Shown: in pieces, positions 3,063-20,352 of the stretch | Layout: each line of letters opens with the position of its first letter | Numbering within the stretch: the stretch's first letter is position 1 | Virus record (IMG/VR): IMGVR_UViG_3300036985_005327 | Location: 24,650-88,649 of that record | DNA length: 64,000 bases | Strand: one strand, 5' to 3' | Origin: a virus | The notes under the pieces: generated by a model | Told to the model about the DNA's origin: nothing | Databases searched by the model: none | Seen by the model: the letters and a program-made list of their open reading frames with translations, nothing else | Translations under genes and position numbers: made by a program

Positions 3063-3095
3063 GCCTAACCTCCAGGGGTTTACGGCGTATACCGC

Positions 3096-3542: not shown

Positions 3543-5670
3543 CTTCGTTTTGCTCCTTAATCGAAGCATATTCCTCCTTGTTAAGATTTTCAATGTAATC
3601 TACCAGAGGAGTCTCACCTATTCCTGGTTGTATAACCTCTGGTTTGGTCATGTACTTTGCCATGCGAGCATCTAGCACACACCCCTCGCACCACGGCGCT
3701 ATTTCTTTTTTCAAGCACGCTTCGTACTCGTCACAGACTACGCACTCCACTCGTTTGGTGAGGACGGTTGCAATATCGTGTCGGTTGTCCAGGGCGATAA
3801 GCTGCTGCCGTTCTACTGAGTAACTCCCCACCAAACGGTACACCACTGTTTTTTGTGTTTGACCGATCCTGAAGTTACGCCCTCGTGATTGGTCCCATGC
3901 GTCTAGAGACCACGCACGACTGTAATAGATTGAGTATTTTGCTGCCGTAAGCGTAACCGCAATCCCGGTGTGGATTTGCCCGAGGTATATGCGACACAAA
4001 GGGTCAGTTTGGAATCTATCTTCATATTTCTTTATGTGCTGAGTATTTGTCCCATCGACACGAACATAGTCAAACTTTAACTTCTTGATAAGATTCTCTA
4101 CGTTATCTAATTCTTCTGTGTAGTTTCCCCAAATAATCACTTTATGCTCAGGGTCTTCGAGGAGGTCTTCCAGTAAGTCTTTGAGAGCCTCTAACTTTGG
4201 ATTCTCTTTGTACCTAACGACCTCGATGATCTTAGCTTCAGCGTTTGAACAGCGGTTTGTTCCGGGTTCGATGTTCTTGGAAACACACTCGAATAAATGT
4301 TCACATGTGTCGCAATAATTTCCCGTGGCGGCTTTGGGTACGTAGTAAAAACCGCTACACATTTGCATCAGCTTAGTTAACCGAATGGCCCCATGTTTAA
4401 AGTCTATACTCTTACCTAAGCCAAGGTGTATCTGGCAGTCTCGTACTGCTACGTTGTAGTCCATTAACTGATTCCCTGTAAGGCTATAACGGATGTCAAT
4501 GTCCTTTCTAGGGGGGAGAGACACACAGTCAGTTAACTTTCTCTCGCTAGAAACTGAATTAACTCTTTCGTTAATTATGTTCATGTTTTTATAACCACGA
4601 ACAATGTGCTTGTTATGTGGCGAGATGTCGCAGAACTTGGGCACAAAGTTATGCCACTCTTCTGGCATCAAAAACGGGGACAGTATCCTGAGCTGGGTAT
4701 AGAAGTCGCGAGGGTCGCCTACCGTAGGCGTACCTGACAGCAAGTACCGCCTGGACGCCCGAGTAGCCAAGGCGTTGATTGCTTTTGTTCGTTGACTGCG
4801 AATATTCTTTACGCGATGAGCTTCGTCCAGGATGAGGGTATCAAACGTTAATCCCGACAAAAAGGGAACTGTGCCGCCGTTGAGTTGGTCAACGAGCTTA
4901 ACGATCTCGTCAGCAGTGGCCTTTCCCGCGTAATATGAAGTCAAAAGAGCGATCTGGTCTTTTGTAGAATGGATCAAAGCCACAGCGTCAAGAACTCTCG
5001 TGTGGTTTTTAGTTGTACCCACTTGAGATTTTTTACGGAGACCTTGCGCTTCGGCACACAGGACGGGAATACTGTACATCCGAGCCGTATCATAAGACAT
5101 AATCACAACGTCGAAGTCTTTGGCTTCTACTAACTTGTTCATCTTCTGTTTGGGTGTCCCAATAATCGCTATAGACGTCAAGGTACCGGCCGAATGAAGA
5201 GCTATCTCACGATGCCACGTATTGATCGCTATGACAGGGCATATGACTATCGTTTTAGTTTTGAGATACGTCAGGGCGTCAACAGCTACTTTAGTTTTCC
5301 CTGTTCCCATTTCCCATCGTAAGTACCATCTGTAATTCGCTAAGAGTTCCGCTGTTCCTTCTTTTTGATGCTCGTAGCTAATGATGTTTCCCGGTGGTGG
5401 GTCCTGTGCATTATGTGCGAGCCAATCTTCTTTTGTTAGTGCCTGGGCATACGCTTCGTTCTTTGTCTCGGCACTTAAGACATTTTCATTGAGTGTGTCG
5501 ATGTCTCGTATTACATTATCTAGGAACGGACGGTACGCTGGACAGACCCAACTACGGAGTTTCTCGACGTACTGAGCCCCAAACACGTGACCCCAGGAGT
5601 CCATTTTGTTTCCAGGAATCAAAAACACAGGGGTTGTTCCAATTTTTACAAGTCTGACTTCGTTAGACAT
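3523..5670 (-). CDS. SNF2-family (SF2) helicase/ATPase with Cys-rich insertions
   Basis: EMGTGKT (I), LILDEAH (II), LSGTP (III), KVIIW, RVDG, QSRGRNFRIGQ (VI); CDTC..C and CVVC..C inserts. Confidence 0.9.
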   Translation of the reverse strand: MSNEVRLVKIGTTPVFLIPGNKMDSWGHVFGAQYVEKLRSWVCPAYRPFLDNVIRDIDTLNENVLSAETKNEAYAQALTKEDWLAHNAQDPPPGNIISYEHQKEGTAELLANYRWYLRWEMGTGKTKVAVDALTYLKTKTIVICPVIAINTWHREIALHSAGTLTSIAIIGTPKQKMNKLVEAKDFDVVIMSYDTARMYSIPVLCAEAQGLRKKSQVGTTKNHTRVLDAVALIHSTKDQIALLTSYYAGKATADEIVKLVDQLNGGTVPFLSGLTFDTLILDEAHRVKNIRSQRTKAINALATRASRRYLLSGTPTVGDPRDFYTQLRILSPFLMPEEWHNFVPKFCDISPHNKHIVRGYKNMNIINERVNSVSSERKLTDCVSLPPRKDIDIRYSLTGNQLMDYNVAVRDCQIHLGLGKSIDFKHGAIRLTKLMQMCSGFYYVPKAATGNYCDTCEHLFECVSKNIEPGTNRCSNAEAKIIEVVRYKENPKLEALKDLLEDLLEDPEHKVIIWGNYTEELDNVENLIKKLKFDYVRVDGTNTQHIKKYEDRFQTDPLCRIYLGQIHTGIAVTLTAAKYSIYYSRAWSLDAWDQSRGRNFRIGQTQKTVVYRLVGSYSVERQQLIALDNRHDIATVLTKRVECVVCDEYEACLKKEIAPWCEGCVLDARMAKYMTKPEVIQPGIGETPLVDYIENLNKEEYASIKEQNEDADYFQ

Positions 5671-5702
5671 TTCCTATCCTTTCGTTACTAACTGGAGGAC
5701 AA

Positions 5703-7439
5703 ATGGCAACTGACACGATGCGCCTGTTCGACCCCTATCACGGGGGGATGGATGGTACTCATTCGAATCCGTACTACCAATATTCGCAGCTCTACACGCC
5801 CAAGCGGCTGAAAGAACTGTTCATCTGGTGCGAGTATCTCTTCTACCAAAGTCCACACATTTTTGCGGCTCTGCGTAAGTTCGGGGAATACCCCATCACG
5901 AAAATTACGTACGAGACCGTAAACGAACATCTGAAAACAAAGCATAAAGAACTTCTGGAAAAGACTCTGCGCGTTCGTGAGTTTTTGATTAAGTGCTCGC
6001 TCGACAAGTATGTTTACGGTAACGCATTCGTTTCTATGTATCAACCCTTTGTGCGTTACTTAAAGTGTCCGTCGTGTTCCTCGCTCTCGAACATAAAGAA
6101 CACCACGTACACATTTGATGTTTCTAATCTCAAGTTCACCTACACGTGTCCCTCGTGCAAGAAGAGAGCAGTGGTCGGTGAGGACAACATCGAAGATCGA
6201 AAACTTCTTTTGAGCAAGGGCATCAATTTCATTCGGTGGGACGCCAAGGACCTCGACATCGATCATAATCCTCTCACGGGAGAGTCTACGTACTATTACA
6301 AGATTCCTAATGCCATCGTGTCGCGGGTTAACTCCGGTCACAAGATGCTCATCGACACCATGCCGATTGGCTTCTTAAAGGCCATCAAGGAGCACAAGCC
6401 CTTCAAGTTTGCGCGTGACGCCATCTTCCACATGAAGGTCGGCGCTCCTGCCGGTATCAATCCGCAGTGGGGACTACCGCCAATCTTGGCTGCTCTCGAG
6501 AGGTTCCACTTCACGCAGATTCTTAGGAAGGCCAACGAGGCTATCGCCCTGGACTACCTCGTTCCTTTTCGTATTCTTCACGCCTCTCAGGCTTCTGGGG
6601 TTGCTGACCCGGTTCAGCAAATTAGTCTGGCCAAGTGGAAAGACGAACTCGACATCAACATCAGGTTACACCGTAAAGACCCTCTCCATATCATGTACTC
6701 GCCCATTCCAGTGGGTATGGTTCAGCTCGGAGGACAGGGCAGAGCACTCTTGACGCTGGGAGAGATCCAGGAAGCCGAGAAGAGCATCGTAGCAACCCTA
6801 GGAATTCCCATGGAGTTCTTATACGGCGGGCTCACGGGACGCGGGATGGAAGCTACGCTGCGCATGATCGAGAACCAGCTTTCGACACACATCGCGGACC
6901 TTATCGACCTAATGCAGTGGATGGATGATAAGTGTGCGGAGTTCCTTGGTTGGGAAAAAATAACTCTAGGGCTTACGCCATTTCGAATGGTCGATGACTT
7001 CGAGAAGCAACAGCTCATGTACAGTGTCTGGCAGTCCGGAAAGCAAACGGGTTCTCAGGTCATTTCGGACACTACGATGTGCGAGATTTTTGAGATCGAT
7101 CCTAAACGGGAAGAAGAGCGCATTAAGGACGAAACTCTGCGTGGCTCGCGTATCAGCCAACAGATTCAGGCTGAGATGCAGAAGATGCAGAATAATGTCG
7201 CGCAACAGTCGCAACAGGAAGCGAACTCTGGTCCTAGCAACTACAATCAGCAGCAAGTTATCGCGAATGCTGACGGCATCCTGTCTGAGATTATGAATAT
7301 GGAATACGGCGCGAAGAAGAGCCGCCTGCACCAGTTACAGATGGAAGATTTTGTGCTGTACTCTGTGGTCATTCAGCGAATGAAACTACAGAACACTCAG
7401 ATGCTGCAACAAGACCCCGCGCAAGGACAAATGGGATGA
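5703..7439 (+). CDS. portal protein with inserted zinc ribbon
   Basis: YVYGNAFV, IFHMK...WGLPPILAAL and IVATLGIP..FLYG portal-like segments; size; first gene of the head module; CPSC-x23-CPSC insert. Confidence 0.75.
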   Translation: MATDTMRLFDPYHGGMDGTHSNPYYQYSQLYTPKRLKELFIWCEYLFYQSPHIFAALRKFGEYPITKITYETVNEHLKTKHKELLEKTLRVREFLIKCSLDKYVYGNAFVSMYQPFVRYLKCPSCSSLSNIKNTTYTFDVSNLKFTYTCPSCKKRAVVGEDNIEDRKLLLSKGINFIRWDAKDLDIDHNPLTGESTYYYKIPNAIVSRVNSGHKMLIDTMPIGFLKAIKEHKPFKFARDAIFHMKVGAPAGINPQWGLPPILAALERFHFTQILRKANEAIALDYLVPFRILHASQASGVADPVQQISLAKWKDELDINIRLHRKDPLHIMYSPIPVGMVQLGGQGRALLTLGEIQEAEKSIVATLGIPMEFLYGGLTGRGMEATLRMIENQLSTHIADLIDLMQWMDDKCAEFLGWEKITLGLTPFRMVDDFEKQQLMYSVWQSGKQTGSQVISDTTMCEIFEIDPKREEERIKDETLRGSRISQQIQAEMQKMQNNVAQQSQQEANSGPSNYNQQQVIANADGILSEIMNMEYGAKKSRLHQLQMEDFVLYSVVIQRMKLQNTQMLQQDPAQGQMG

Positions 7440-8011
7440 ACGAGTTCAGAGCACAGGTAGAGGACGCACAGAAGTTCGAGTTCACGAACGTCTTTGGCGG
7501 AAACAAAGGGGGGAACCTAGTCACCCCTAAGACTGAATCGAGTCAAATAGCTGACCAGATTAAGGTCATGTATTTCTCGAAGGTGTTTGTGTTGTGGCGT
7601 CCTTACGAAGCCTGTCCAAGGTGCAGCAACGAGTTGAACGCAGGGGAAACGCAGATTCCCATTGAAGGGGATTACACGTGTCCGCATAACGACAACACTG
7701 CGTATGAGGCGGTAGTGAATCTTTGTCTGAGTGGAAAAGCACTCATGCAGAAGCAGGAATTTTTTAACCGCAGGGAAAATGATGCTCGGTGTGTGCACAT
7801 CATGTGGATGATTGCCGACCCCAGGCACATAGCTGAGATTGAAAATAAAAAGAAGGCTAAGGAAAAAGACCAGGTGTACCCCCCAAATCCCAAGAAGGTT
7901 TTTGACGAGGAGTACGACAAAACGCAAAGTGCGGAGCCCCCCAGCGCCGCAGTGAACGTTACAGCCTCGACCTCAGTACTACCTGAACAAGAAGTCCCCA
8001 AAAAGTTGTGA
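7436..8011 (+). CDS. hypothetical Zn-binding protein
   Basis: ATGA-coupled to portal; CPRC...CPH. Confidence 0.65.
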   Translation: MNEFRAQVEDAQKFEFTNVFGGNKGGNLVTPKTESSQIADQIKVMYFSKVFVLWRPYEACPRCSNELNAGETQIPIEGDYTCPHNDNTAYEAVVNLCLSGKALMQKQEFFNRRENDARCVHIMWMIADPRHIAEIENKKKAKEKDQVYPPNPKKVFDEEYDKTQSAEPPSAAVNVTASTSVLPEQEVPKKL

Positions 8012-8100
8012 TTACCACTAGCTCTCCTTCTCGTGCAGCGGTTAATTACACTGCGTATCCTTATACCTGTAGAGAAAGTATTTTTTGAAAAGGAAACAAA

Positions 8101-11100
8101 ATGACTCAGGATATCCAGCCTTTTTTGGTCAGTGCTGATATAAAACGCGAGCACATCCGCAATAAGGTTGTGGAGGGTATCCAAGAGTCATTCCCTATAA
8201 AGTCGCGCAGCAAGACTATCCACGTAAGCGACATCACTGTTCAGAACAAGGACTACTCTCCGTCTGACCAGAAGACCGCTATCATGGAAGGGAACTCCCT
8301 CTTCGAACACGTCAAGGGGACCATAACCGTTCGGGACAACGCTACGGGTGAAATTTCCGATAAGATAAAGAACTTTACCTTAGCAAAGGTTCCGTGGTTT
8401 ACGCCCCGGCATACGCTGATTGTTGGGGGCAACGAGTACTCTGTCGCGAGCATGGTGCGCCCAAAGACAGGTGTCTACGCGCGCAAACGGGCTAACGGTA
8501 TTCTTGAAGCCAATTTCAACATGCAGGGAGCCTCGAACTTCAACGTGACCATGGACCCCGAACAGGGCGAAATGCAGATCGAGTACGGAGCTTCAAAAAT
8601 TCCTCTGTACCCAATTCTTACGCGAGCAGGATTAACGCACGAAGACATCTCAACGGCTTGGGGAAAAGACCTGGCTGATAAGAACCGGCAGATGGCCCCC
8701 AAGAACGCCAGCGGCGTTGTGGACCGTTTATACAACAAGGTTGTCCCCATCTACGGAAGAGATGTCCTGAAGTTAACGACTCCCGAAGATAAGGTTAAAG
8801 AGATTTTTAACCGCTATTCGAAGGCGACAATGGACCCGGAAGTCAACAAGGTGACTTTGGGTATGCCGTATTCGAGCGTGACTCCGCACGTGATTCTTGA
8901 TGCTTCAAAGAAGGTTCTGAAAATTTTCAAGAACAGCGACGAAGTAGACGACCGCGACAACTTGGACTTTAAAGCTCTCTACGGGATCGACGATTTCTTC
9001 AAAGAGCGCATCAAGCTCGACGCTCGTGACATCGCTCGAAAAGCGTCCATAAAGATCGAGGCAAAGAAAGACCTGAGACACGCGGTCCAATCTGCTCCGT
9101 TTACTCCTGGTCTTTTGAAATTCATTAACACGTCGCGGCTTGTGTCTGTTCCTACGCAGACAAACCCAATGGAGCTCATAGACTCCTCGATGCGTATCAC
9201 CTCTCTTGGTGAGGGCGGCATCAGCTCTGAACGAGCTATCCCCATGGAAGCTCGCATGATTCATCCGACTCAGATCGGTGCCATCGACCCGATGCGTACG
9301 CCTGAATCGTTCCAGGCCGGTGTCGATGTCCGAGCGGCCATGATGCTCCATAAGGATAAGCAGGGGAACATTTACGTTCCCATGTACGACGTCAAGAATG
9401 GGAAGAAGCTCGTCTTTATCCGTGCGGGACAGATTCAAAACAACGTGGTCGCTTTTCCCCAACAGAAGCTCGAGGGTCAAGTAGACGCGTTAGTTAACGG
9501 CGTAACACGGAAGGTATCTGCGTCCACGGTGCAGTACCAGATTCCCCATTCGTCGGTAATGTACAGCCCTGCAACGAACCTTATTCCGTTCATGGAGTCG
9601 AATCAGGGTAACCGAATCATCATGGGGTCTAAGTACCAGACGCAGGCGTTGTCCTTGGTAGACCGCGACGTACCTAACGTACAGTCTATCTCGCAGACGG
9701 GTAAGCCGATGGTCACCGTAATGGCTGAGACCATTAACCCCAAGTCTCCCGTTGACGGACTCATTACGGAGATAGACAAAGACTACATCCGCATTAAGCC
9801 CGATACGGGCAAGGGTGTGGTCAGCGTTCACTACGAAACAAATTTCCCTCTGGCCGCTAAGTCGTTCCTGCACCACACGCTTAACGTACGGGTTGGTGAC
9901 CATGTTAAGCAGGGTCAAATGCTTGCTAACTCGAACTACACCAAAGATGGTCAGCTCGCTCTCGGTAAGAACTTGACCGTTGCATACATGCCTTACCGAG
10001 GTGCCAACTCCAATGACGCGGTTGTTGTGAGTGAAGGGGCTGCTAAGAAGTTAACATCTGAAAAGATGTACAAGATTATAGTAGCGCGCGACGTAGACAT
10101 GACCTTTAACAAGGACAAGCACCAAGTCTACTACGGGCACGAGTACAAGAGAGACCAGTACGGGTTGGTAGACGCTGACGGCGTAGTAAAGAAGGGCGCG
10201 AAGTTGAACGCGGGCGACCCTGTTATTTTTGGGTTACGTCAGTCAACGATGACCCCTGACGACATTTTGCTCGGGCGTCTGCACAAGTCGCTGATAAAGC
10301 CTTTTAGAAACGCCTCAGAGATATGGGACCACAACCATACCGGAGAAGTAGTAGACGTTGTAAAGACGCCCAAGAGAATTGCGATTACGATCAAGGTCAA
10401 AGAGCCTGTTGTCGTCGGAGATAAATTATGTTACGCCGTAAACACGGACATCTTAACTACCACGGGCTGGAAACCTGTAGAGAAGGTAACGGTTAGCGAC
10501 GTATGCTACACGCTGAATACTGAAGGTGTAATCGAGCTACACAATCCTACAAACGTACATGCTTATCCCCATGGGGAAGAGATGTACGAGCTTAAATCGC
10601 AACAAGTAGACCTACGTGTAACAGCTAATCACAGTCTTTTAGTTGAACTTAGAGGCACAAAAACTTTTAATTTAATAGAAGCCAGAGACGTCATTGGAAA
10701 ACGTGTACGGCATCGTAAAGATGGTGTTTGGTCATGTGGGACTACACCAAAGTTCTTTGAACTTCCTATCCTAGAAATTTTAGAAACGGGAAAAGGGTGT
10801 AAAAAGTCGCAAAAAGCAGCTAACCGACATGCTCCTATCCAAATGTTGGACTGGCTTGAATTCCTTGGAATTTATTTAGCTAATGGTTCCACTACTATTT
10901 TTAACCGAAAAGACAGAAATGGAGCTGTGGAACATATTGTACAGTTAAGTAGCGACTACGGTCAAATCCATAGTATTTCGGGAGACCAGTATGCCTGGAT
11001 TCAAGAAGTAATAGAACGCTGTGGGTTTTATTACCAGGCTATCCCAAAGGGGTTCCTTATAAAGTCAAAACAGTTAGCATGTTACCTATCTCAGTTTGGT

Positions 11101-14100
11101 AAAGCCCCTGACAAGTATGTACCCCAAGAGATTTTTACTTATGGAATAGATGCGTCAGACAAGCTTCTTGTAGGGTTGTTGGGATGTGATGGTTCACGCA
11201 CTCCCTCAGGGTCGTTAGTTTATTCGTCTGTGTCCCGTACGCTAATTGATGACGTTCAGAGACTATGTCTTCATCGCGGATGGTCTGCTAACTTTAAGAT
11301 TAGCCCTCGGACCAATTACCCTGAAACCTGGAACACATGTTATCGCGCTCAAGTTGTACAATCAAAAAATAGACCACAGGTAAATCACGGACATAGCAAA
11401 ACGCAAAGTGGTCAATCAGAACGGCTGTTTACATCTGAAGAACCTGTTTATGGTTTGACGATCCCGAACCACACGTTGTATGTGCGGCGTAACGGTAAGC
11501 CTGTCTGGAGCGGTAACAGCGGAAATTTTGGGAACAAGGGGGTTGTTTCTGAAATCATACCTGACGAGCACATGATTAAAGACGAGTCAGGGAAGCCCAT
11601 TGATATCATCGTGACCTCGGCCGGTGTTGTTGGCCGAATCAATCCAGCACAGATCCTCGAGGCTGCTGTCGGTAAAGTGGCAGCGAAGACAGGTAAGCCC
11701 GTCCTAGTAGAAAATTTCTCAAGTAGAGACAACGTCCAGTACGCAAAAGACCTACTGAAGAAACACGGAGTCAAAGACAAAGAGACAGTTTTTGACCCGA
11801 TAACGGGGAAAACTATCCCGAGTGTTTTTGTGGGTAACGGGTATTACTTCAAAGCCTTTAAGAGCACGGACGTCAACTACAGCGCCAGGAACATTGGAAG
11901 CTATGACGCGAATTTACAGCCCACCAAGGGTGGTGACGCGAGCTCTAAAGCTTTGGGTATGATGGAGTTCGGTGCTCTCGTGGGTCATAACGCTCGTAAC
12001 GTTCTGTTGGAGGCGTCTACACTCAAGAGCCAAAAGAATGATGAGTTCTGGCGCGCTCTCCAGATGGGGTACCCTACTCCTCCTCCAAAGACCTCCTTCG
12101 CTGCCGACAAGTTTATGAACATGCTCGTAGGAGCCGGGGTCAAGGTAACGCGTACGGGATCGAAGATTGCTTTGGGTCCGCTCACAGACCACGACACTAT
12201 GAAGATGTCCGCTGGTGAAATCTTGGAGCCCAAGCTTGTTAGGGCTAAGGACCTGAAGCCTGAGAAGGGTGGTCTCTTTGACCCAGGCATTACGGGTGGT
12301 CTCAAGGGAGATCGTTGGGCACACATCGATCTCGCGGAGCCAATTGTAAACCCCATTTTTGAGGAGCCCGTTCGTCGCTTTTTGGGAATGACCGGGACTA
12401 AGCTCACTGAGACTATCCACAATCAAGGTGCTGGTTACCTGAAGACAGAGCTGAACAAAATAGACCTGGATAAGAAACAGGCTGAGCTGGAAGACAAGAG
12501 CAAAAAAGCAAAGGGCTCTGACCTAGACAGCATTGTTAAGCAGCTCAAGTACATCAAGTCTCTCAAGTCGTTGAACCTGATTCCGGGTGACGCGTACATC
12601 ATCTCGAAGATTCCGGTTGTTCCTCCGCTGGTACGCCCTGTCATCCCTGGCAAGGGAGGTCAGGAGCTCATTTACGGTGACATCAATCCTCTCTATAGAG
12701 ATCTTCTTTTCGTGAACAACCAGCTCAAGGAAGTTAAGAAGGCTGGCACGATGCCTTTTGAGGAAGCCAAGCTTCGCCCGATGCTCCACCAAGCTGTTGG
12801 TGCTGTTTACGGAGTAAACGACCCTGTCACCACAAAGTCGTTAGCCCGAGGGCACAAAGGGTTCCTTACGTATATCGCGGGAGCGGGTAGCCCAAAGTAC
12901 GGATACTTCCAGTCTAAGCTGATGAAGAAGACACAAGACGTAGCTGGCCGTGGAACCATTGTCCCGGACAGCAATCTTGGCATAGACGAGGTTGGACTTC
13001 CCGAAGATATGATCTGGACGATGTACGAGAAGTTTTTGATTCGGCGTCTCGTGCAGCAGGGTTACGCACCCCTCGAAGCCCAAGAGATGATTAAGGCGCG
13101 TCATCCGCTAGCCAAAGAAGCGTTTATGCGTGAGATCAAAGAACGCCCTGTGATGATGAATAGAGCTCCCACTCTACACCGTTTTAACATCACTGGTGCT
13201 TTTCCTGTGCCAGTAGCAGGACAGACGATTCGGGTGAATCCGTTTGTTGAGATTGCCCAAAATGGTGACTACGACGGTGATTGCGCTGATTGTACCCTAG
13301 AATATGCTATTTGTATCGCAGGGAAGTATGTGCTACAAAGTCTCCACATTGGGGATTTCCCCCACAACAAGGAGACGAAGAAAGTGACTGGAAACAAAGA
13401 GCTCTACGAAGTCCCGGCGAACACGTTTGTCTTTGGCTACAGCGAGAAGAACCAGAGGGTGCAACTCTGTGAGGTGACGCACTTCTCGGTGCACCATGAC
13501 TTGGAGATGGTGAACGCCACGCTCACCAGTGGGAGGTCCGTGAAGGTTTCTCGCGACCACAGCATGTTCGGCATGAACCCGGAGACAGGTGAGCTGTCGC
13601 GGTTCAAAGCCGAAGAGGGTATTGGTTGGGGCACACCTAAACCACGCCAGTTATTCGTAGAACAAAAACGAGATTATTTAACTGACCACTGTGACGCTCC
13701 TGACCTAGAGAATGTACCGATGGACTTCAACTTAGGTTGGGTACTAGGTGCTTGGGCGGGAGATGGGTGGGTTGGTCACTCAAACGATAGCCCCAACCAA
13801 GTGTGTCTTGCAAAGGTTGACCCGCTAGTTCGGCATACATTTACGCAGCGTATGTTCCGTTATAAGGAGGACGCGAGTTTGCGTGAGTACTCGGCCACGC
13901 ATGATTACGGAGGAGGTGAGTACACTTCTACGAAAATACACATAAATAATACTAAACTGGCTAAGTGGTTTTCAGGTGTCACCGAAGGCATCCGGGGCTC
14001 CCATAACAAAAAGCTTCCTAGTTGGTTTATGCACGGTAAAGAAGATTTCCTTCTCGGTCTTCTCAGTGGATTACTGGACACAGACGGAACAGTATGCAGC

Positions 14101-14991
14101 GTAAAAGCCAAAGCAAAGAACAAGCCCCAGATTATGGCCACGTACCATACCGTATCTCGTAACCTAGCGGTGGACGTATCCACGCTGCTATGCCTTTTGG
14201 GAATCAAGTCCCGGATACACCCCTACACCAAAAAAGAGAGTCCGGGGCAAGAGTATTACAACGTTGTGATATCTGTCCCAGACCTACAAAAGGTTGCAGG
14301 ACAACTCCAGTGCGCTACAGAGTCTAAAGCCCGAGTGCTCAAAGAACTGTCTAACATCACTTTTGACCCGAGTGCTCCTGAGAATGCTCGGTGGGACATG
14401 CTCCCAATCTCTGGAGCTACGATCCAGGCGATTCGCAGTGTACAAATTTTATCGACTAGTTCGTGTGAGTATGTCGCACTAACAAAAGCGGTGAAGCTAA
14501 ATAGAATTTCTCGTGGCGTTTTGAACAAAATACGAGAACAACTCGGAGATGATTTAGTTAAGGACGTCTGTGGTGCTGCGTGGTTTAAGAACGTTACTAA
14601 CGAAAACATCATCTGGGACTTTATCGAAACAGTAGTTCCGCTTGATGAACGACAGACTGCTTGGGACATCACAGTTCCTGATGGCTGTACGTTCATGACC
14701 AGCGAGCAAATCGTTGTTTACGACACCATGATGATTCACACCCCGGTGTCAAACGCGGCGATTGAAGACGTCAAGAAAATGACGCTCTCGAACACGCTGT
14801 ACGGAGACAAATCACACAGCGACCTCTTTGTTGTGCCGCGTCACGAGTCAACAATGGGTATCACGCATGCTAGTGGTTTAGACGACCACAACAAGCCAAT
14901 TCACTTTGCGACACAAGCCGATGCTATGAAGGCGTACCACGACAGTAAAATTACTCTAGGTACCCGCGTAACGATTGGCGAGCAAAAGTGA
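8101..14991 (+). CDS. rpoBC: DNA-directed RNA polymerase beta subunit fused to N-terminal half of beta', containing two inteins (about 1452 aa after splicing)
   Basis: beta motifs: TNPMEL..MRITSLGEGG, IHPTQIGAIDPMRTPE, LIPF..NQGNRIIMGSKYQTQA, LALGKN..AYMP, GDKL/GNKGVV, RINPAQILE, SAR..GSY..QPTKGG. beta' motifs: KPEKGGLF, IPVVPPLVRP, NRAPTLHR, catalytic NGDYDGD. Confidence 0.97.
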   Translation: MTQDIQPFLVSADIKREHIRNKVVEGIQESFPIKSRSKTIHVSDITVQNKDYSPSDQKTAIMEGNSLFEHVKGTITVRDNATGEISDKIKNFTLAKVPWFTPRHTLIVGGNEYSVASMVRPKTGVYARKRANGILEANFNMQGASNFNVTMDPEQGEMQIEYGASKIPLYPILTRAGLTHEDISTAWGKDLADKNRQMAPKNASGVVDRLYNKVVPIYGRDVLKLTTPEDKVKEIFNRYSKATMDPEVNKVTLGMPYSSVTPHVILDASKKVLKIFKNSDEVDDRDNLDFKALYGIDDFFKERIKLDARDIARKASIKIEAKKDLRHAVQSAPFTPGLLKFINTSRLVSVPTQTNPMELIDSSMRITSLGEGGISSERAIPMEARMIHPTQIGAIDPMRTPESFQAGVDVRAAMMLHKDKQGNIYVPMYDVKNGKKLVFIRAGQIQNNVVAFPQQKLEGQVDALVNGVTRKVSASTVQYQIPHSSVMYSPATNLIPFMESNQGNRIIMGSKYQTQALSLVDRDVPNVQSISQTGKPMVTVMAETINPKSPVDGLITEIDKDYIRIKPDTGKGVVSVHYETNFPLAAKSFLHHTLNVRVGDHVKQGQMLANSNYTKDGQLALGKNLTVAYMPYRGANSNDAVVVSEGAAKKLTSEKMYKIIVARDVDMTFNKDKHQVYYGHEYKRDQYGLVDADGVVKKGAKLNAGDPVIFGLRQSTMTPDDILLGRLHKSLIKPFRNASEIWDHNHTGEVVDVVKTPKRIAITIKVKEPVVVGDKLCYAVNTDILTTTGWKPVEKVTVSDVCYTLNTEGVIELHNPTNVHAYPHGEEMYELKSQQVDLRVTANHSLLVELRGTKTFNLIEARDVIGKRVRHRKDGVWSCGTTPKFFELPILEILETGKGCKKSQKAANRHAPIQMLDWLEFLGIYLANGSTTIFNRKDRNGAVEHIVQLSSDYGQIHSISGDQYAWIQEVIERCGFYYQAIPKGFLIKSKQLACYLSQFGKAPDKYVPQEIFTYGIDASDKLLVGLLGCDGSRTPSGSLVYSSVSRTLIDDVQRLCLHRGWSANFKISPRTNYPETWNTCYRAQVVQSKNRPQVNHGHSKTQSGQSERLFTSEEPVYGLTIPNHTLYVRRNGKPVWSGNSGNFGNKGVVSEIIPDEHMIKDESGKPIDIIVTSAGVVGRINPAQILEAAVGKVAAKTGKPVLVENFSSRDNVQYAKDLLKKHGVKDKETVFDPITGKTIPSVFVGNGYYFKAFKSTDVNYSARNIGSYDANLQPTKGGDASSKALGMMEFGALVGHNARNVLLEASTLKSQKNDEFWRALQMGYPTPPPKTSFAADKFMNMLVGAGVKVTRTGSKIALGPLTDHDTMKMSAGEILEPKLVRAKDLKPEKGGLFDPGITGGLKGDRWAHIDLAEPIVNPIFEEPVRRFLGMTGTKLTETIHNQGAGYLKTELNKIDLDKKQAELEDKSKKAKGSDLDSIVKQLKYIKSLKSLNLIPGDAYIISKIPVVPPLVRPVIPGKGGQELIYGDINPLYRDLLFVNNQLKEVKKAGTMPFEEAKLRPMLHQAVGAVYGVNDPVTTKSLARGHKGFLTYIAGAGSPKYGYFQSKLMKKTQDVAGRGTIVPDSNLGIDEVGLPEDMIWTMYEKFLIRRLVQQGYAPLEAQEMIKARHPLAKEAFMREIKERPVMMNRAPTLHRFNITGAFPVPVAGQTIRVNPFVEIAQNGDYDGDCADCTLEYAICIAGKYVLQSLHIGDFPHNKETKKVTGNKELYEVPANTFVFGYSEKNQRVQLCEVTHFSVHHDLEMVNATLTSGRSVKVSRDHSMFGMNPETGELSRFKAEEGIGWGTPKPRQLFVEQKRDYLTDHCDAPDLENVPMDFNLGWVLGAWAGDGWVGHSNDSPNQVCLAKVDPLVRHTFTQRMFRYKEDASLREYSATHDYGGGEYTSTKIHINNTKLAKWFSGVTEGIRGSHNKKLPSWFMHGKEDFLLGLLSGLLDTDGTVCSVKAKAKNKPQIMATYHTVSRNLAVDVSTLLCLLGIKSRIHPYTKKESPGQEYYNVVISVPDLQKVAGQLQCATESKARVLKELSNITFDPSAPENARWDMLPISGATIQAIRSVQILSTSSCEYVALTKAVKLNRISRGVLNKIREQLGDDLVKDVCGAAWFKNVTNENIIWDFIETVVPLDERQTAWDITVPDGCTFMTSEQIVVYDTMMIHTPVSNAAIEDVKKMTLSNTLYGDKSHSDLFVVPRHESTMGITHASGLDDHNKPIHFATQADAMKAYHDSKITLGTRVTIGEQK
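10429..11517 (+). mobile_element. intein 1 (363 aa) with LAGLIDADG homing endonuclease, in beta GDK motif
   Basis: GDKL|CYAVNTDILT ... VTANH (block B) ... FLGIYLANG, LLVGLLGCDG ... VWSGN|S. Removal restores GDKLSGNFGNKG. DNA is more AT-rich than the flanks. Confidence 0.93.
13282..14724 (+). mobile_element. intein 2 (481 aa) with LAGLIDADG endonuclease, directly after catalytic DxDGD; atypical C-terminal Tyr-Asp
   Basis: NGDYDGD|CADC ... VSRDH ... VLGAWAGDG, LLSGLLDTDG ... AWDITVP..TF..IVVYD|TMMIHTP. Removal gives DYDGD-TMMIHTP, matching DFDGD-QMAVHVP. Confidence 0.9.
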
Positions 14992-16439
14992 ACAAGCAAG
15001 ACGTTCTAGACTACTACACTACCCCGCATATTCAGGATGCTTTACTCCGTAATTTTTATGGAGACGAAGCCCTGACGCTCGTGCAGCATGAAGAAGGGAA
15101 ACCTTTTTATCGTAGGAATCTAGACGGGAATCCAATCAAGCTGAACAACCAGGGGCAGCTTAAACGGCTACTGGACCAGCGTACAGTTGAATTTCATCCG
15201 TCGATTGGGAAGACCACGAACGTCGTGTGGGTGGATATCGATCCAGGGAAAGATGTCACAACCCATAATCTTAAACCAATCGTAAAGCAAATCGACACAA
15301 TCCTAAAGGGGATGCCTGAAGTGACACGAACGTCGCTGGCGTTCTCGGGGGGTCGGGGGTTCTATGTTCGAGGTCATCTTAAAGAAGAGATGGCTACGGA
15401 CGAGGTACAGAAACTCCTGGACGAGAAGCTGAAGAAGCTGACCGTGAGTGACCCCAAGTTGGTTATGGCTCCTCCGCAGTCTCTTCAGGTACGTCTCGAC
15501 ACCTCGACGCTTCATAACAAAGGTTCTATTCGTGGTTTGTACTCCTTGAACTCTGAGACAGGATTGGCGTCAGTGCCTCTTAAAAGGCACGAGCTCAATG
15601 ACTTCAATCCAGACACAGACGCTAATCCAAAAAGATTAATGGAAGCGGAGTTCGCTCCAGGGATACCACGTGACAAAAGAACTCATGACATTCCCACCCT
15701 TGCAGGAGCTGCTTGGACCATGTCAGTGCAGCAGCATGACGCGGTTAAAGCGGGTCCTCACTGGGATCTTCGGCTCATTGACCCGGACACGAGTCACGCG
15801 CACTCATGGGCTATCCCAAAAGCAAAGTTTCCTGAAGCAGGAGGAAAACCCCTGCTTGCTATACAGACCCCTACGCACACATCTGATTATGCTCTCCAAT
15901 TTGGAGAGAGCGGGCCTCAGCAAATACATTCGGGATACGGACGTGGCTCTGTTGAGATCAAACACAAAGAACCTATAACGGTTTTGTCGTCTAGGCTAGA
16001 TAGTCTAAAATTCGAACGAACCGTAGGTGATGCTAAAAAAGAGCGGTATGCTCTAGTTCGAACAAACAAGGACAAGTGGCTCATGCGAAATATCACTGAG
16101 AAAGTTGCTTCGTCGTTTTACTGGCAGGGCTACTTTGATACGCTCTACAAGTTAGGTGCTGAAGAGGTGAGCGGTATCGACCAAGGTCAGTCCGGTAACG
16201 CGTCTACTACAGAGTCGGGTCGCCCTATTCCTAGCAACGACGAGAACACAGGTGCGGGACAGTTAGCCGCAGTGTTTAACGAGATGAACGTAGACGGCGA
16301 GGGTGGAGAAGTTCAAGCAGACGGAACGGGCAACAAGGTAGACAAACACCTCGAGCGTCCCTCTGAGTGGGGCAATCCGTTCTCCGTGGGAACCATGAGC
16401 GGGTCTTCACCGATCATTCCGGGTGGCGGCGGTAACTGA
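14988..16439 (+). CDS. LigD-like protein: AEP primase-polymerase domain + 3'-phosphoesterase domain, no ligase domain; C-terminal low-complexity tail
   Basis: AEP: WVDIDP, FSGGRGFY, VRLD..., YSL. PE: VQQHDA...HWDLRL, HSWAIPK, LAIQTPTHTSDY, GYGRGSVEI. GTGA and TGATG overlaps with both RNAP genes. Confidence 0.85.
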   Translation: MNKQDVLDYYTTPHIQDALLRNFYGDEALTLVQHEEGKPFYRRNLDGNPIKLNNQGQLKRLLDQRTVEFHPSIGKTTNVVWVDIDPGKDVTTHNLKPIVKQIDTILKGMPEVTRTSLAFSGGRGFYVRGHLKEEMATDEVQKLLDEKLKKLTVSDPKLVMAPPQSLQVRLDTSTLHNKGSIRGLYSLNSETGLASVPLKRHELNDFNPDTDANPKRLMEAEFAPGIPRDKRTHDIPTLAGAAWTMSVQQHDAVKAGPHWDLRLIDPDTSHAHSWAIPKAKFPEAGGKPLLAIQTPTHTSDYALQFGESGPQQIHSGYGRGSVEIKHKEPITVLSSRLDSLKFERTVGDAKKERYALVRTNKDKWLMRNITEKVASSFYWQGYFDTLYKLGAEEVSGIDQGQSGNASTTESGRPIPSNDENTGAGQLAAVFNEMNVDGEGGEVQADGTGNKVDKHLERPSEWGNPFSVGTMSGSSPIIPGGGGN

Positions 16440-18244
16440 TGACAACCGAGGGAACTCCTTTTGGTCAGCATTTGATTAATGAGCTTATGCCTGAAGGGTA
16501 TAAGTTCAAAGGTCAAATAACAGGTAAAGATTTCACGGGAACAATGACCCGGTTATCAAAAACTGACCCGCACACGTACGCTCAAATTGTGGGTAACGTG
16601 AAACGGTTAGGCGACCACCTTGCTACCACGGAAGGTCTCTCGGTTGGGCTTGATGATATCGCTCCTGACTACGCTGAGCGCGCTCCGTTAATGGCTCAGG
16701 TATCTGCAAAGTTCCATAAGGCAAAAACAGATAACGAGAAGCGCACAGTATTAGAAGACGCGCACCAGGGTTTCAAAGATTTGGCTATGCGTCATCCAGG
16801 CACTATGACGCAGCAGGTTGCCTCAGGTTCTCGCGGTAAACCAAACCAGTATATGAAAATCGTAGCTTCTCCTGTGTACGGAAGAGACGGGCGTGGGAGA
16901 GTAGAACCTTGGTTAATCCGTAAGTCCTATTCAGAGGGGATGTCGCCAGCGGACAACTGGGTTGTGAGTAGCGAAGCCATTCTTGATACTATCAAGTCAA
17001 GCACATCAGTGTCTGAACCCGGTGAGCTCTCTAAGATTCTGGTCAGTAACATGAACAACATTCTAATTACTGAGCAGGACTGTGGGACGCATAACGGTAT
17101 ACTGATGGACCCTCGCGACTCAGACGTTGTTGACCGCTATCTGGCGCGTGACGTGGGTGCCTTTAGGCGTAACACCTTGATTACGCCGAACGTGCAGCCT
17201 TCTTTGTCCAAAGCGTCTTCGGGAAAGATCCTGGTTCGTTCTCCTATGACCTGTGAAGCGAGTGACGGCGTTTGCCAACACTGCCAAGGTCTTAACGAGA
17301 AGGGAAGAATGCACGACATCGGGACAAACGTAGGTGTGCGTTCGGCTCAAGCTATGGCTGAGCCACTGACGCAGCTTGCTCTGTCTGCTAAGCACGGAGC
17401 GAACACGGCATCTTCCGGGAGAATGCAGTTGCAAGGACTCTCTGGTTTTCGACAGGCCATCGAGTCTCCCAACCTTTTTATGCACAAGGCCACGCTGTCT
17501 ACTCTTAACGGCCAAGTGACCAAGGTAGAAAAAGCCCCTCAAGGAGGACACTTTGTTCACGTGGGTGACGTGTCCCACTACGCTACTCCAGGTCTGGGCC
17601 TGAAAGTAAAAGTTGGCGATTCCGTTGAACAAGGGGATGCCCTGAGCGACGGGATTCCCAAACCAAACGAGGTAGTCAAGTACAAGGGCCTGGGGGCTGG
17701 TCGAGTTTACATGGTAAATACCCTGCGTGGAATTTACAAAGACCAGGGGATCAATATTGACCAGCGCCACTTTGAGCTATTAGCTCTGGGTGAGTTGAAC
17801 CATGTCCGAATTTTGGACGATCCTGGTAAGAATTTTCTCAAAGGAGACGTTGTTCGCTACAACAACCTGAAGTCTGCGTTGTCTCAAGGGATCAAACAGA
17901 TGAGTCTCTCTGATGCTCTGGGGGAGACGTTAGGTAAAGAGTACTTTCATTTTTCTGTGGGTATGCGCGTAACGTCTTCAATGGTAGATTTTCTTAAAGC
18001 CCACGGAGTTAAGGAAGTTTTTATAGCTCCCAGAGCTCCCCAAGTTGAATTCGTAATGAAGCCAGCTACACGTGCTCCGTTGTACAACCCCGATTGGATG
18101 GCTCGGCTAGCACACAGAAACTTAAAAGTTACACTGCAGCAAGCAGCCCACTTTGGGGAAATATCCGACGTACACGGTTCTTCGCCTATTCCGGCCTATG
18201 TTTTAGGTACTGAATTTGGAAAAGGCGAAAAGGGAAAATACTAA
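16439..18244 (+). CDS. rpoC: DNA-directed RNA polymerase beta' subunit, C-terminal half
   Basis: GLSVGLDD, SGSRG, SYSEG, ITEQDCGT, VRSPMTC..GVCQHCQG (Zn site), trigger loop SAQAMAEPLTQLALSAKH, QGINIDQRHFE. Confidence 0.95.
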   Translation: MTTEGTPFGQHLINELMPEGYKFKGQITGKDFTGTMTRLSKTDPHTYAQIVGNVKRLGDHLATTEGLSVGLDDIAPDYAERAPLMAQVSAKFHKAKTDNEKRTVLEDAHQGFKDLAMRHPGTMTQQVASGSRGKPNQYMKIVASPVYGRDGRGRVEPWLIRKSYSEGMSPADNWVVSSEAILDTIKSSTSVSEPGELSKILVSNMNNILITEQDCGTHNGILMDPRDSDVVDRYLARDVGAFRRNTLITPNVQPSLSKASSGKILVRSPMTCEASDGVCQHCQGLNEKGRMHDIGTNVGVRSAQAMAEPLTQLALSAKHGANTASSGRMQLQGLSGFRQAIESPNLFMHKATLSTLNGQVTKVEKAPQGGHFVHVGDVSHYATPGLGLKVKVGDSVEQGDALSDGIPKPNEVVKYKGLGAGRVYMVNTLRGIYKDQGINIDQRHFELLALGELNHVRILDDPGKNFLKGDVVRYNNLKSALSQGIKQMSLSDALGETLGKEYFHFSVGMRVTSSMVDFLKAHGVKEVFIAPRAPQVEFVMKPATRAPLYNPDWMARLAHRNLKVTLQQAAHFGEISDVHGSSPIPAYVLGTEFGKGEKGKY

Positions 18245-18246
18245 AC

Positions 18247-18861
18247 ATGACGCCGTTTGAATCAGGTTGGGACGATGTTATTTCGGCGTTGGGTCTTACT
18301 AAAACAGCGTTGGCTGTACCCCCGGCTGCAGCGTCTCAATTGGCAGGCAAGGCGATGTCTACAGGCGTGAACGCCGCGACTAAGACCCCTTGGTACACTT
18401 CTGTGCGTAAAGGCGCGATAGGAGAACCTATCAACTTTGGTAAAGAATTACTGTCAGGTAAAGCCTTTACGCGCGAAGGTATGATGTACGATGGCTTTCG
18501 AGCTAGGTCCACTATGGACAAAGCATTGCTGTATGGGTTGCCCGCATTCATGGGGTATCAGACCATGAAAAGCGATGCCCCTGATAAAGCGCAACAGATG
18601 GGTGGTTTGGTTGCTTCTACTTTGGGTACGAACGCTCTCTTCCGACCTTTTGGTATGCTCGGAAGTATGTTAGCGTACCCAGCATTAGATAGAATAGGAC
18701 GTGGAGCGGTGAACGTAGCTCAAAAAGCCACGGGAACATTCGGTCAATCCGATGCTCAAAATCCGTACGCTTCATTCCAAAGAAAGCAACAACAACCCCA
18801 GCAACAACAGCAGCAACAACCTCAGCAATTTCAAAGAAGAGACTACGGTAGTCTCACTTGA
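18247..18861 (+). CDS. putative head-internal (ejection) protein with leader motif and poly-Q tail
   Basis: N-terminus PFESGWDDVISALGLTKTA followed by Gly/Ala-rich hydrophobic segments; position in head module. Confidence 0.55.
   Translation: MTPFESGWDDVISALGLTKTALAVPPAAASQLAGKAMSTGVNAATKTPWYTSVRKGAIGEPINFGKELLSGKAFTREGMMYDGFRARSTMDKALLYGLPAFMGYQTMKSDAPDKAQQMGGLVASTLGTNALFRPFGMLGSMLAYPALDRIGRGAVNVAQKATGTFGQSDAQNPYASFQRKQQQPQQQQQQQPQQFQRRDYGSLT
18787..18828 (+). repeat. CAA/CAG poly-glutamine microsatellite
   Basis: caacaacaaccccagcaacaacagcagcaacaacctcagcaa encodes QQQPQQQQQQQPQQ. Confidence 0.85.
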
Positions 18862-18907
18862 TATTTAGTCGTACACTTGTGAAAGGTACGCTAGGAGGAA
18901 ACGTTTC

Positions 18908-19297
18908 ATGCTCACTGCTCTTATGTTGAAACAAGCCTACGCTCATGGAGCAGCCTCTGCTCTTCGTGAGGTCGGGTATCCGCTACAAACGGCGCATAAC
19001 ATTAGCGTTAAGTTAGCAGAAGAAGCTATGAGCGCCTCCCCGCAACCCGTGATGCCGCAGGAGATGCAACCCGAGATGCAGCCTGGAATGCAGACCGAGG
19101 AAGTGCAGCCCGAGAGACACCTCTTAGGCCCCAACCCCGGAATGCAGGAACAGCAGGAATCTCCTGATGTCGGAAGCCTAGTCGAAAGCGGAGGGTTGGG
19201 CGTTCCTCAATCCCCTGAAATGCAAGAACAAGAAGCCCCTCCTGAGGCGTACGCAGATGCCACCAACGACGACATCTACGGCGCGCTTAGCGAGTAA
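18908..19297 (+). CDS. putative head-internal protein (acidic, P/Q/E-rich)
   Basis: AGGAGG RBS; LKQAYAHGAASALREVG leader; MQPE repeats. Confidence 0.6.
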   Translation: MLTALMLKQAYAHGAASALREVGYPLQTAHNISVKLAEEAMSASPQPVMPQEMQPEMQPGMQTEEVQPERHLLGPNPGMQEQQESPDVGSLVESGGLGVPQSPEMQEQEAPPEAYADATNDDIYGALSE

Positions 19298-19319
19298 CGT
19301 ACTAAAAGGAGTCAACACC

Positions 19320-20240
19320 ATGGGTCTTTTGAAGAGAGCACATGTTCGCGGTCTTAACTTTGGCCTGATGAAGAACGGGCTGGTATCTTACCCGTCTATC
19401 AAGTGGGCTAACGAAGCCGCTGACGCTGTCGCAGACGAAATTCCGGAAGAGGCTGCTCCGGAAGTGACCGATGACGCTGGCATGAGTGCCAACGAAGTCG
19501 CGCCGATCCTCCAGAAACTCGTCGAAGTGGCTCAAGCGATTGCCGCCAAGACCGAAGCCCCAATGGACGAGAACCTGAACAAGGTCTCTGCGGACCAGAG
19601 CCTCGATCTCACGAAGCTGGCGTACGCGATGGCTGAGCGTCTGATCTATAAGGCCGCTCTCGAGTCGGGCACCACGAACCCCGGTTCGGGTCCTGCCACG
19701 CACGAGCAGGTCTTTGTCGAAGGTGAGACCGACGCCGAGAAGAATCCGTCTTCGGCTGTGACGGGTCCGAAGGGTTCTTCGTCCCTCGACACCAGCGCTG
19801 GTGTCGTCGGCGCGCAGACCGTTCGCCCTGACCAACCGGGCACGCAAGATTCCCCGGCTCCGACGACGCTCGCGGATGTGAAGATCTCTTCCTTCCTACA
19901 GAAGCTGTCGAAGGACGGTACGCTTCCCCAGTCGGGTGGTCGTACGGACCTCGCCACGAACGCGAACCTGAAGGGCACCGTGGTTCCCCAGGGCACGACC
20001 AACGCCAAGACGCCGCACACACCTGTCCCGCTCCAGCGGAACCCGGCCGCTCCGCAGCCCCCGGTGAGTAACGAGATTCAGGCGGATGTGAAGAAGACGG
20101 CGGAACAGCTACTCTCGACTGAGGAAGGTCGCCAGATCCTGCTCAACCTTCATGCTCAGCAGCAGAAGCAGGCGAGTCAAGAGGAAGTCGTGGACGTCGC
20201 GACGAATATCCTTTTGAACGCCCTCAAGTCCGTTCGCTGA
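19320..20240 (+). CDS. putative prohead core/internal protein
   Basis: Start ATG 19320 after AAAGGAG; many K-x-A motifs; strong C-ending codon bias. Confidence 0.6.
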   Translation: MGLLKRAHVRGLNFGLMKNGLVSYPSIKWANEAADAVADEIPEEAAPEVTDDAGMSANEVAPILQKLVEVAQAIAAKTEAPMDENLNKVSADQSLDLTKLAYAMAERLIYKAALESGTTNPGSGPATHEQVFVEGETDAEKNPSSAVTGPKGSSSLDTSAGVVGAQTVRPDQPGTQDSPAPTTLADVKISSFLQKLSKDGTLPQSGGRTDLATNANLKGTVVPQGTTNAKTPHTPVPLQRNPAAPQPPVSNEIQADVKKTAEQLLSTEEGRQILLNLHAQQQKQASQEEVVDVATNILLNALKSVR

Positions 20241-20352
20241 TATTCGTTTCTTCCTTCCGGCAATAATTGACATATAATTCAAGACGAAACCAAATAGAGC
20301 ACGCTTTCGTGTTCTGAGAACTTGGTACTCGTTAACAGGACAGGTTCAAACA

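Follow-up and report, generated by a model that had tools for sequence, protein, structure and literature searches.

We report that a 64,000-nucleotide stretch of viral DNA (positions 24650-88649 of the 88.6-kb IMG/VR record IMGVR_UViG_3300036985_005327, a contig judged to be about 50% complete; the whole stretch is referred to as the window) carries genes for a bacterial-type multisubunit RNA polymerase (RNAP) in which beta is fused to the N-terminal part of beta-prime (beta-prime-N) and the C-terminal half of beta-prime (beta-prime-C) is encoded separately. Positions 8101-18244 are filled by three co-directional open reading frames (ORFs) on the + strand, each open under translation table 11. 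The gene overlaps, which can be read directly (GTGA at 14988-14991 and TGATG at 16437-16441), suggest that all three genes are translationally coupled. The features in window coordinates are given below; they are based on Pfam, on BLASTP, on phmmer against the PDB and on alignment with genes from two isolates, Salmonella phage Arash and Vibrio phage D181.

8101..14991, + strand: chain 1 precursor gene, beta and beta-prime-N with two predicted inteins; one open frame of 2296 amino acids (aa), 1452 aa when spliced
8101..10428, + strand: beta N-terminal extein, aa 1-776, ending in GDK of the active-site motif (phmmer against the PDB)
10429..11517, + strand: predicted intein 1, 363 aa (aa 777-1139), LAGLIDADG; inserted between GDKL and SGNFGNKG, with Cys at the start, SGN at the end and Ser at +1
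11518..12147, + strand: beta C-terminal extein, aa 1140-1349, continuous with beta-prime (Rpb2_6 at aa 1140-1277)
12148..13281, + strand: beta-prime N-terminal extein, aa 1350-1727, up to the catalytic NGDYDGD (Rpb1_1, Rpb1_2; BLASTP to Salmonella beta-prime 34-514)
13282..14724, + strand: predicted intein 2, 481 aa (aa 1728-2208), LAGLIDADG; directly after the third catalytic Asp of NGDYDGD, with Cys at the start, VVYD at the end and Thr at +1
14725..14988, + strand: beta-prime-N tail, 88 aa after the catalytic loop, end of chain 1 (aligns with the tails of Arash and D181)
14988..16439, + strand: LigD-like gene, 483 aa (Pfam LigD_Prim-Pol, LigD_N)
16439..18244, + strand: chain 2 gene, beta-prime-C, 601 aa (Rpb1_5)

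The first ORF reads from beta through its C-terminal end (FMNMLVGAGVKV, aa 1338-1349, nt 12112-12147) into beta-prime (KIALGPL, aa 1355-1361, and KPEKGGLF, aa 1386-1393) and past the catalytic DxDGD loop, as had been described in a first-pass annotation of this DNA. The Pfam domains follow each other in the bacterial order, Rpb2_3 and Rpb2_6 of beta and then Rpb1_1 and Rpb1_2 of beta-prime; together with Rpb1_5 in chain 2 these passed the curated cut-offs comfortably, Rpb1_1 being the exception. Both double-psi beta-barrel (DPBB) motifs, GDK..GNKG and DxDGD, are present, and the catalytic residues and the Cys residues of the Zn site are intact. Spliced chain 1 would have a beta part of about 986 aa and a beta-prime part of 466 aa, and it was aligned along its length with Arash gp206 (1525 aa) and the D181 genes.

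Colinearity with bacterial RpoB and RpoC, noted earlier by eye, was borne out by two kinds of search. BLASTP against the Salmonella subunits (E. coli numbering) paired chain 1 with beta 425-931 and 1048-1295 and then with beta-prime 34-514, and chain 2 with beta-prime 666-936 and 1196-1320. Using phmmer against the PDB, the beta extein matched bacterial beta at an E-value of 1e-40 and the AR9 non-virion RNAP (nvRNAP) chain 7s00_C at 1.2e-5, and its alignment with a small cyanobacterial beta was nearly 1:1 (query 80-753 to chain 91-787). Since the stretch GLFDP..WAHIDLAEP of beta-prime-N is shortened and has no Cys, where E. coli has four, the N-terminal zinc-binding domain is absent from the phage beta-prime. 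An AlphaFold (AF2) model of a 588-aa junction segment had a mean predicted local distance difference test (pLDDT) value of 73, with about 90 at the beta/beta-prime join and in a helical hairpin at the position of the clamp helices. All top Foldseek matches of this model were bacterial beta-prime, with template modelling (TM) scores that were low because half a subunit was folded alone.

The two insertions in the chain 1 gene appear as clean gaps in both Arash gp206 and D181. Each has an N-terminal nucleophile, a nucleophile at +1 and a LAGLIDADG domain, and removal restores the conserved beta and beta-prime motifs; both are hence inteins, which we infer to splice out of the chain 1 precursor. 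LAGLIDADG_3 scored 24 bits in intein 1 (cut-off 22.5) and 50.5 bits, also above the cut-off, in intein 2, where Intein_splicing reached 31.6 bits and stayed below its cut-off. Homologous inteins occupy site 1 in nine related loci, and the eight C-termini read there, including that of the window, all end in W(S/T)GN followed by S. At site 2 the intein of the window and seven homologues, which are 28-69% identical to it and start with Cys, Ser or Thr, all end in (V/I)V(Y/F/Q)D followed by T or S. Intein 2 thus ends in Tyr-Asp and not in the usual His-Asn; because the terminal Asp is shared by all eight site 2 inteins it is, on the strength of this comparison, a conserved trait of the lineage and not damage. 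An insert of roughly 500 aa is also present at site 2 in 19 of 64 two-chain representatives of the RNAP family described below.

The remainder of beta-prime is encoded in a separate gene, as noted in the first-pass annotation, with the addition that this gene is not adjacent to the chain 1 gene, the LigD-like gene lying between them. Chain 2 covers the TTxGR-equivalent (TPFGQ, aa 6-10), the bridge helix, the second Zn site, the trigger loop and the C-terminus, with Rpb1_5 at 69.8 bits. Across the phage RNAP family no variation is seen in the four Cys of the second Zn site, and alignment with bacterial beta-prime showed that the lineage-specific insertions SI2 and SI3 are absent from chain 2. 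The phmmer search against the PDB gave bacterial beta-prime at 1e-35 (query 19-486 to chain 619-1112) with E-values alike for Firmicutes, Thermus, Actinobacteria, Proteobacteria and cyanobacteria, and no phiKZ or AR9 chain was among the 60 beta-prime matches listed.

Chain 2 begins at roughly E. coli residue 568 (the TTVGR motif) and cyanobacterial RpoC2 at approximately 588, i.e. in the alignment the phage cut lies about 20 residues upstream, consistent with the earlier remark that the rpoC1/rpoC2 split is near this point. The cyanobacterial and plastid enzymes resemble that of the window in having beta-prime cut after the catalytic DPBB domain, and they differ from it in that beta is unfused and that alpha, omega and a large RpoC2 insertion are present. 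The two splits share neither the exact residue nor any sign of descent, the E-values to cyanobacterial chains being no better than those to other phyla. In Helicobacter and Wolbachia one polypeptide contains both subunits, with the beta C-terminus leading into the beta-prime N-terminus; these are cellular enzymes with an unsplit beta-prime and with alpha and omega. The Helicobacter and Wolbachia fusions are not among the sequences in our trees (see below), and the comparison with the phage fusion is one of layout.

The window belongs to a large family. While a single-sequence query of viral contigs found only one relative, an alignment-based scan of IMG/VR gave 56 loci, and the end of beta and the start of beta-prime were in one ORF in 52 of the 52 loci with both sides readable (window included), with identity to the window falling to about 25-30%. 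The junction is also fused in the isolates Arash (gp206) and D181. Fusion and split are hence found repeatedly, both in isolates and in over 50 independent assemblies, which rules out the assembly artefact that the first-pass annotation had named as a way for its proposal to fail. A junction probe of 301 residues (150 on each side), searched against 1.84 billion cluster representatives, matched 842 protein clusters at E<=1e-30. Among the best 150 of these 842, nearly all span the join in one stretch, and by type they comprise 64 two-chain forms, 47 single-chain beta-beta-prime forms and 39 partial sequences. Stand-alone beta-prime-C homologues of about 600 aa form at least 885 clusters at 90% identity and occur on contigs of up to 190 kb. 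In nearly all intein-free two-chain representatives the tail after the catalytic loop is 83-92 aa long.

Several variants of this layout were found. Beta and beta-prime share a single ORF in L044, L046, L049, L053, L057 and L058, and the intein-free L049 protein has 2040 aa; these single-chain RNAPs of uncultured relatives have the same junction, the same intein sites and a nearby LigD-phosphoesterase-like gene, and differ from the RNAP of the window in their uninterrupted beta-prime. The RNAP genes of L052 (5636-11692) and L053 (4592-11692) contain in-frame TGA codons, one of them in L052 exactly at the split point. With TGA read as sense L052 has a single ORF of 2019 aa and L053 one of 2367 aa, and in the L053 locus TAA is the stop codon of all 12 long ORFs, which suggests stop-codon recoding in this branch of the family. 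In D181 (L002:5656-11170) and L054 beta is cut in two at the same point around a homing-endonuclease gene, annotated as such in D181 and presumed in L054, where beta breaks at this same point and leaves a similar gap, and in L038, L040 and L055 there is an extra cut near beta-prime residue 93. The RNAP genes of the family are a hot spot for mobile-element insertion and gene fission. Moreover, the spacing between the two RNAP genes varies from a few bases (L038) to the LigD-like gene (the subclade of the window) and to nine genes, five of which are on the opposite strand (Arash).

The LigD-like protein has a primase-polymerase and a 3'-phosphoesterase domain and lacks the ligase domain (LigD_Prim-Pol 34.3 bits, cut-off 27.4; LigD_N 28.7 bits, below its cut-off of 31.1). 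Its C-terminal tail is Gly-rich and disordered-looking. The gene has the same position throughout the subclade of the window; L026-L028, L034 and L050 have a match to the phosphoesterase part only, placed between the RNAP genes, and the single-chain clade has such a match downstream of its RNAP gene. Either the LigD-like gene or the phosphoesterase match alone therefore adjoins the RNAP genes across deep branches of the family, and the gene is absent from Arash and from the relative G003.

The same architecture type is present in Arash (OQ632216; PMC10585845), with a genome of about 180 kb, and in the Vibrio phages D69, D148 and D181, whose RNAPs are 29-36% identical to that of the window. In Arash, as in the phage of the window, a portal gene and a small ORF precede the beta-beta-prime-N gene (gp206), beta-prime-C (gp216, 606 aa) is separate, and one RNAP set is accompanied by sigma genes (gp10 and gp196), with no alpha or omega found. 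The phage of the window shares with Arash the junction in one ORF, the separate beta-prime-C with its start at the TTxGR-equivalent, some 85-90 aa beyond the catalytic loop, the location after the portal gene in the head module, the single RNAP set and the phage sigma genes. Arash differs in having no inteins, no LigD-like gene and nine genes between the RNAP genes. The first-pass annotation had considered that the architecture might match an already characterised phage RNAP family; gp206 and gp216 had indeed been sequenced and annotated, but they are biochemically uncharacterised, and the Arash paper labels them 'beta' and 'beta-prime' and mentions neither the fusion nor the split (PMC10585845). 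The layout was undescribed in the full-text literature searched, including jumbo-phage reviews from 2020 and 2026; an article from 2025 on large phages of a new lineage contains no RNAP.

Phages of the phiKZ/AR9 (PBS2) type likewise encode RNAPs without alpha and omega, have one RNAP set packed in the virion and have beta-prime split after the DPBB domain, at a place that coincides with the cyanobacterial split (Sokolova et al. 2020). The earlier statement that these RNAPs are far more diverged holds (1.2e-5 versus 1e-40, see above), whereas the statement that they are split differently is wrong as far as beta-prime is concerned. Their RNAPs have no homologues of alpha, omega or sigma, are active without alpha and omega, and come in two sets (Sokolova et al. 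2020). In contrast, the family of the window has a single copy of beta, which is unsplit and fused to beta-prime and not split and unfused as in phiKZ/AR9, has a single RNAP set and sigma factors, and is much nearer to bacteria in sequence.

Phage beta and beta-prime that can be aligned with their cellular homologues and branch apart from cells have been reported for the mReC Caudovirales (Weinheimer & Aylward 2020, PMC7481178); that paper mentions no fusion, split, intein or sigma. The mReC contig list shares the metagenome ids 3300017987, 3300017991, 3300017963 and 3300014204 with loci of the present family, with no individual contig matched. The RNAPs of the Kleczkowskaviridae and of Cobetia phage Carin-5 are also alignable with those of cells. 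They differ in gene organisation, i.e. Carin-5 has separate beta-prime and then beta genes and the Rhizobium phage an unsplit beta-prime, in both cases in the replication module.

With respect to its origin, a scan of one genome per prokaryotic species gave only ordinary rpoC genes with 22-28% identity. A tree of beta-prime-C (67 rows, 580 columns, quick IQ-TREE search with LG+C20) placed the phage family in one clan, with a Shimodaira-Hasegawa-like approximate likelihood ratio test (SH-aLRT) value of 100, and 30 bacteria in another (99); the RNAPs of Carin-5, Rhizobium phage, IME392 and L059 were on separate long branches. The separation of family and bacteria was seen again (SH-aLRT 100) in a second tree based on the beta C-terminus and beta-prime-N (58 rows, 612 columns; 25-30 bacteria were sampled across the two trees). 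Hence, as far as these trees tell, none of the sampled bacteria was the source of a recent capture, and the first-pass view of an independently captured enzyme is not supported, the window belonging to a large and deep family. The two-chain forms are one clade in both trees (SH-aLRT 98 and 99) and the single-chain forms are basal, as a sister clade in the beta-prime-C tree and as a paraphyletic grade in the second. Within the family the two-chain form probably derives from a single-chain beta-beta-prime fusion, and with bacteria as outgroup the simplest history would be one basal beta/beta-prime fusion and one later split of beta-prime.

During the collection of relatives, 'Acinetobacter phage MD-2021a' and 'Staphylococcus phage SA 1306 Kay' were rejected as phages with a related RNAP, being bacterial chromosome DNA, and were used as bacterial sequences. 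The loci concerned in the phage collection are L068 (CAKLQH020000005.1), L067 (OR844998.1) and L066 (AFYI01000006.1); the mislabelled records carry rpoB-rpoC-type genes, L068 having the whole rplJ-rplL-rpoB-rpoC stretch, and a Salmonella draft contig is also among the phage collection records.

The search for accessory subunits covered five records: that of the window, Arash (a complete genome) and three relatives from IMG/VR, of which two are 100% complete. None of the five contains a match at E<=1 to the alpha families PF01000 and PF01193 or to the omega family PF01192, whereas each of these families was recovered in 14 of 14 control genomes, and each record has one beta gene. The alpha dimer and omega of a whole bacterial core are accordingly not seen alongside beta and beta-prime, and the absence of alpha and omega noted for the window extends to complete relatives. 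The earlier remark that no sigma gene is recognisable holds for the window only: sigma-70 region 2 is present in all five records, and on the contig of the window a 364-aa sigma with regions 2 and 4 ends about 0.8 kb before the window start (G000:C1:22765-23859; L003:1195-2289). This protein, the orthologue of Arash gp196, is extended at the N-terminus by about 100 aa in which several CxxC zinc-ribbon motifs occur. Homologues of the second sigma-like protein of Arash, gp10, occur in the closest relatives of the window and are missing from its half-complete contig; by synteny, a gp10-type gene would be expected beyond the 5' end of this fragment. The findings would fit a core that assembles independently of alpha and uses sigma.

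The location of the RNAP genes bears on whether the enzyme is carried in the virion. The gene 5' of them is identified by homology:

5703..7439, + strand: portal protein gene (homology to Arash gp204)

The portal ORF had no Pfam or PHROG match of its own; the assignment comes from Arash gp204, a virion-detected protein with a portal annotation, to which it is 28% identical across 551 aa at an E-value of 2e-90. The contig of the window and Arash have one gene order in common, namely sigma, helicases, portal, small ORF, RNAP and head genes. Mass spectrometry of Arash particles detected gp206 with 128 unique peptides and 3516 spectra, the highest count and above that of the major capsid protein, gp216 with 40 unique peptides and 1210 spectra, and the sigma-like gp10 with 24 unique peptides and 467 spectra, while gp196 is not listed among the virion proteins (PMC10585845). 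Virion packaging, earlier proposed from gene position, is therefore plausible, both chains being among the most-detected proteins of the Arash particle (PMC10585845); it is likely for Arash, and by analogy it may apply to the phage of the window.

On the basis of these data we suggest, with a probability of roughly 80%, that the window encodes the phage's own RNAP core of two polypeptides, which is intein-spliced, free of alpha, sigma-using and packed in the virion, and in which the split is derived from a fusion. Chain 1 would be made as the 2296-aa precursor from which the two inteins splice out to give the 1452-aa beta plus beta-prime-N, and with the 601-aa chain 2 it would form the phage's own, and probably only, RNAP core. 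The covalent link between beta and beta-prime probably replaces the assembly role of the bacterial alpha dimer and omega, and promoters are probably recognised through phage sigma-like factors. Packing of the enzyme into the capsid is probable, given that its genes come after the portal gene and within the head module, and phage transcription would then begin from the injected enzyme, with no need for the host polymerase. The two-chain layout would have a single origin, in which an older single-chain fusion was split about 88 residues past its catalytic loop, and the gap between the chains has since held variable cargo, here the LigD-like gene. The more detailed proposal of a minimal and self-sufficient bacterial-type machine, with no alpha or omega, with phage sigma in a capsid-borne holoenzyme, with the single-chain form as ancestral and with the LigD-like protein as a co-expressed and possibly co-injected partner, is tentative, and we rate it at somewhat less than an even chance.

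Several observations weigh against this interpretation. A very divergent equivalent of alpha or omega, or the use of host alpha, could escape Pfam searches. The 116 proteins listed for Arash include ribonucleotide reductase, DNA ligase and primase, with 2-11 peptides for metabolic enzymes, and its authors allow for carry-over of abundant infection-phase proteins (PMC10585845). Lys-x-Ala sites are not in excess in the RNAP chains (10 versus 9.4 expected in chain 1, and 1 versus 2.0 in chain 2), so these chains bear no sequence sign of capsid targeting or processing; the LigD-like protein has 2 such sites versus 3.0 expected and no excess either. If intein 2, ending in Asp and not in Asn, were unable to splice, the catalytic loop would stay broken. 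The rooting of the trees rests on a long branch, with a bacterial sample biased to Bacillota and candidate phyla, no archaeal outgroup and quick trees. Finally, the phage of the window itself is known from a contig that is about half complete.

Given these points, the chains could belong to an ordinary intracellular RNAP, produced after infection for middle or late genes, where adjacency to portal reflects gene order only and the Arash detection reflects carry-over. The caution of the Arash authors, the breadth of their protein list and the lack of a capsid-targeting signal or Lys-x-Ala excess would fit this, but gp206 has the top spectral count and 128 unique peptides compared with 2-11 for the metabolic enzymes, a location between portal and head genes has been kept from Arash to the window, and with only one RNAP set the enzyme must enter with the DNA if it is used for early genes; we therefore regard an exclusively intracellular role as unlikely. 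Quite unlikely, too, is a hybrid core in which the phage chains assemble on the host alpha dimer (and omega) and replace beta and beta-prime only. It would account for the lack of phage alpha and omega, which all known cellular RNAPs have (Sokolova et al. 2020), and beta and beta-prime of the phage have stayed near enough to the bacterial subunits for a colinear alignment. On the other hand, the phiKZ and AR9 RNAPs are active without alpha and omega (Sokolova et al. 2020), there is far less need for an assembly platform once beta and beta-prime are covalently linked, and 22-28% identity to bacterial beta-prime is low for a host-specific alpha interface across many hosts. A packed hybrid enzyme would also need to carry host alpha, on which the Arash table, listing phage proteins only, is uninformative.

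A recent, independent capture of host rpoB-rpoC that was later fused, split and streamlined would explain why the genes can be aligned colinearly with bacterial RpoB/RpoC and are far closer to these than to AR9. We consider it very improbable: many hundreds of clusters have the same architecture, with identities as low as about 25-30%, all sampled bacteria fall outside the one clan that the family forms (SH-aLRT 100 and 99-100), no bacterial beta-prime exceeds 28% identity and the PDB E-values are alike across phyla. The last alternative, i.e. that fusion and split are assembly or frameshift artefacts or that the gene is a decaying pseudogene, might be raised for a single metagenomic contig with two large insertions interrupting the gene; it deserves practically no credence, as 2296 codons are open, bona fide inteins restore the motifs on removal, the catalytic and Zn-site residues are intact, and the junction and split recur in isolates and independent assemblies.

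Some observations concern the neighbourhood of the RNAP genes. An SNF2-family helicase gene (3523-5670, - strand) is divergent from the portal gene with a gap of only about 32 nt, and upstream on the same strand there are genes for a PD-(D/E)XK nuclease (2190-3062) and an amidase (988-2247); the Arash stretch between sigma and portal, with genes annotated as helicases, corresponds to this SNF2 region. Pfam and PHROG searches of the neighbouring head-module ORFs gave almost no matches. Further downstream, a 1060-aa ORF (25939-29121) has PHROG matches to a head maturation protease (residues about 507-573) and an endonuclease (249-371), which fits a prohead protease interrupted by an intein or a homing endonuclease. 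Sigma-70-like promoter sites in window positions 3000-21000 were fewer than in shuffled sequences (9 versus 16.4 +/- 3.7) and terminator-like sites around the RNAP genes were at background level only, i.e. the promoter and terminator scan was not informative.

An alpha-type assembly platform is used by every cellular RNAP. The phiKZ and AR9 RNAPs, the only well-studied ones that do without it, are too diverged for residue-by-residue comparison with bacterial enzymes and are without sigma, whereas the family of the window is colinear with the bacterial enzymes and has kept sigma. As alpha, omega, the first zinc domain and the lineage-specific insertions have all been lost, it is a natural minimal version of the bacterial enzyme and may reveal in what way assembly factors can be replaced by a covalent beta/beta-prime link, and with Arash as a member cultured in a laboratory Salmonella strain the mechanism can be tested. 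The current gene labels 'beta' and 'beta-prime' hide this architecture, and the size and wide distribution of the family bear on how many environmental phages transcribe independently of their hosts.

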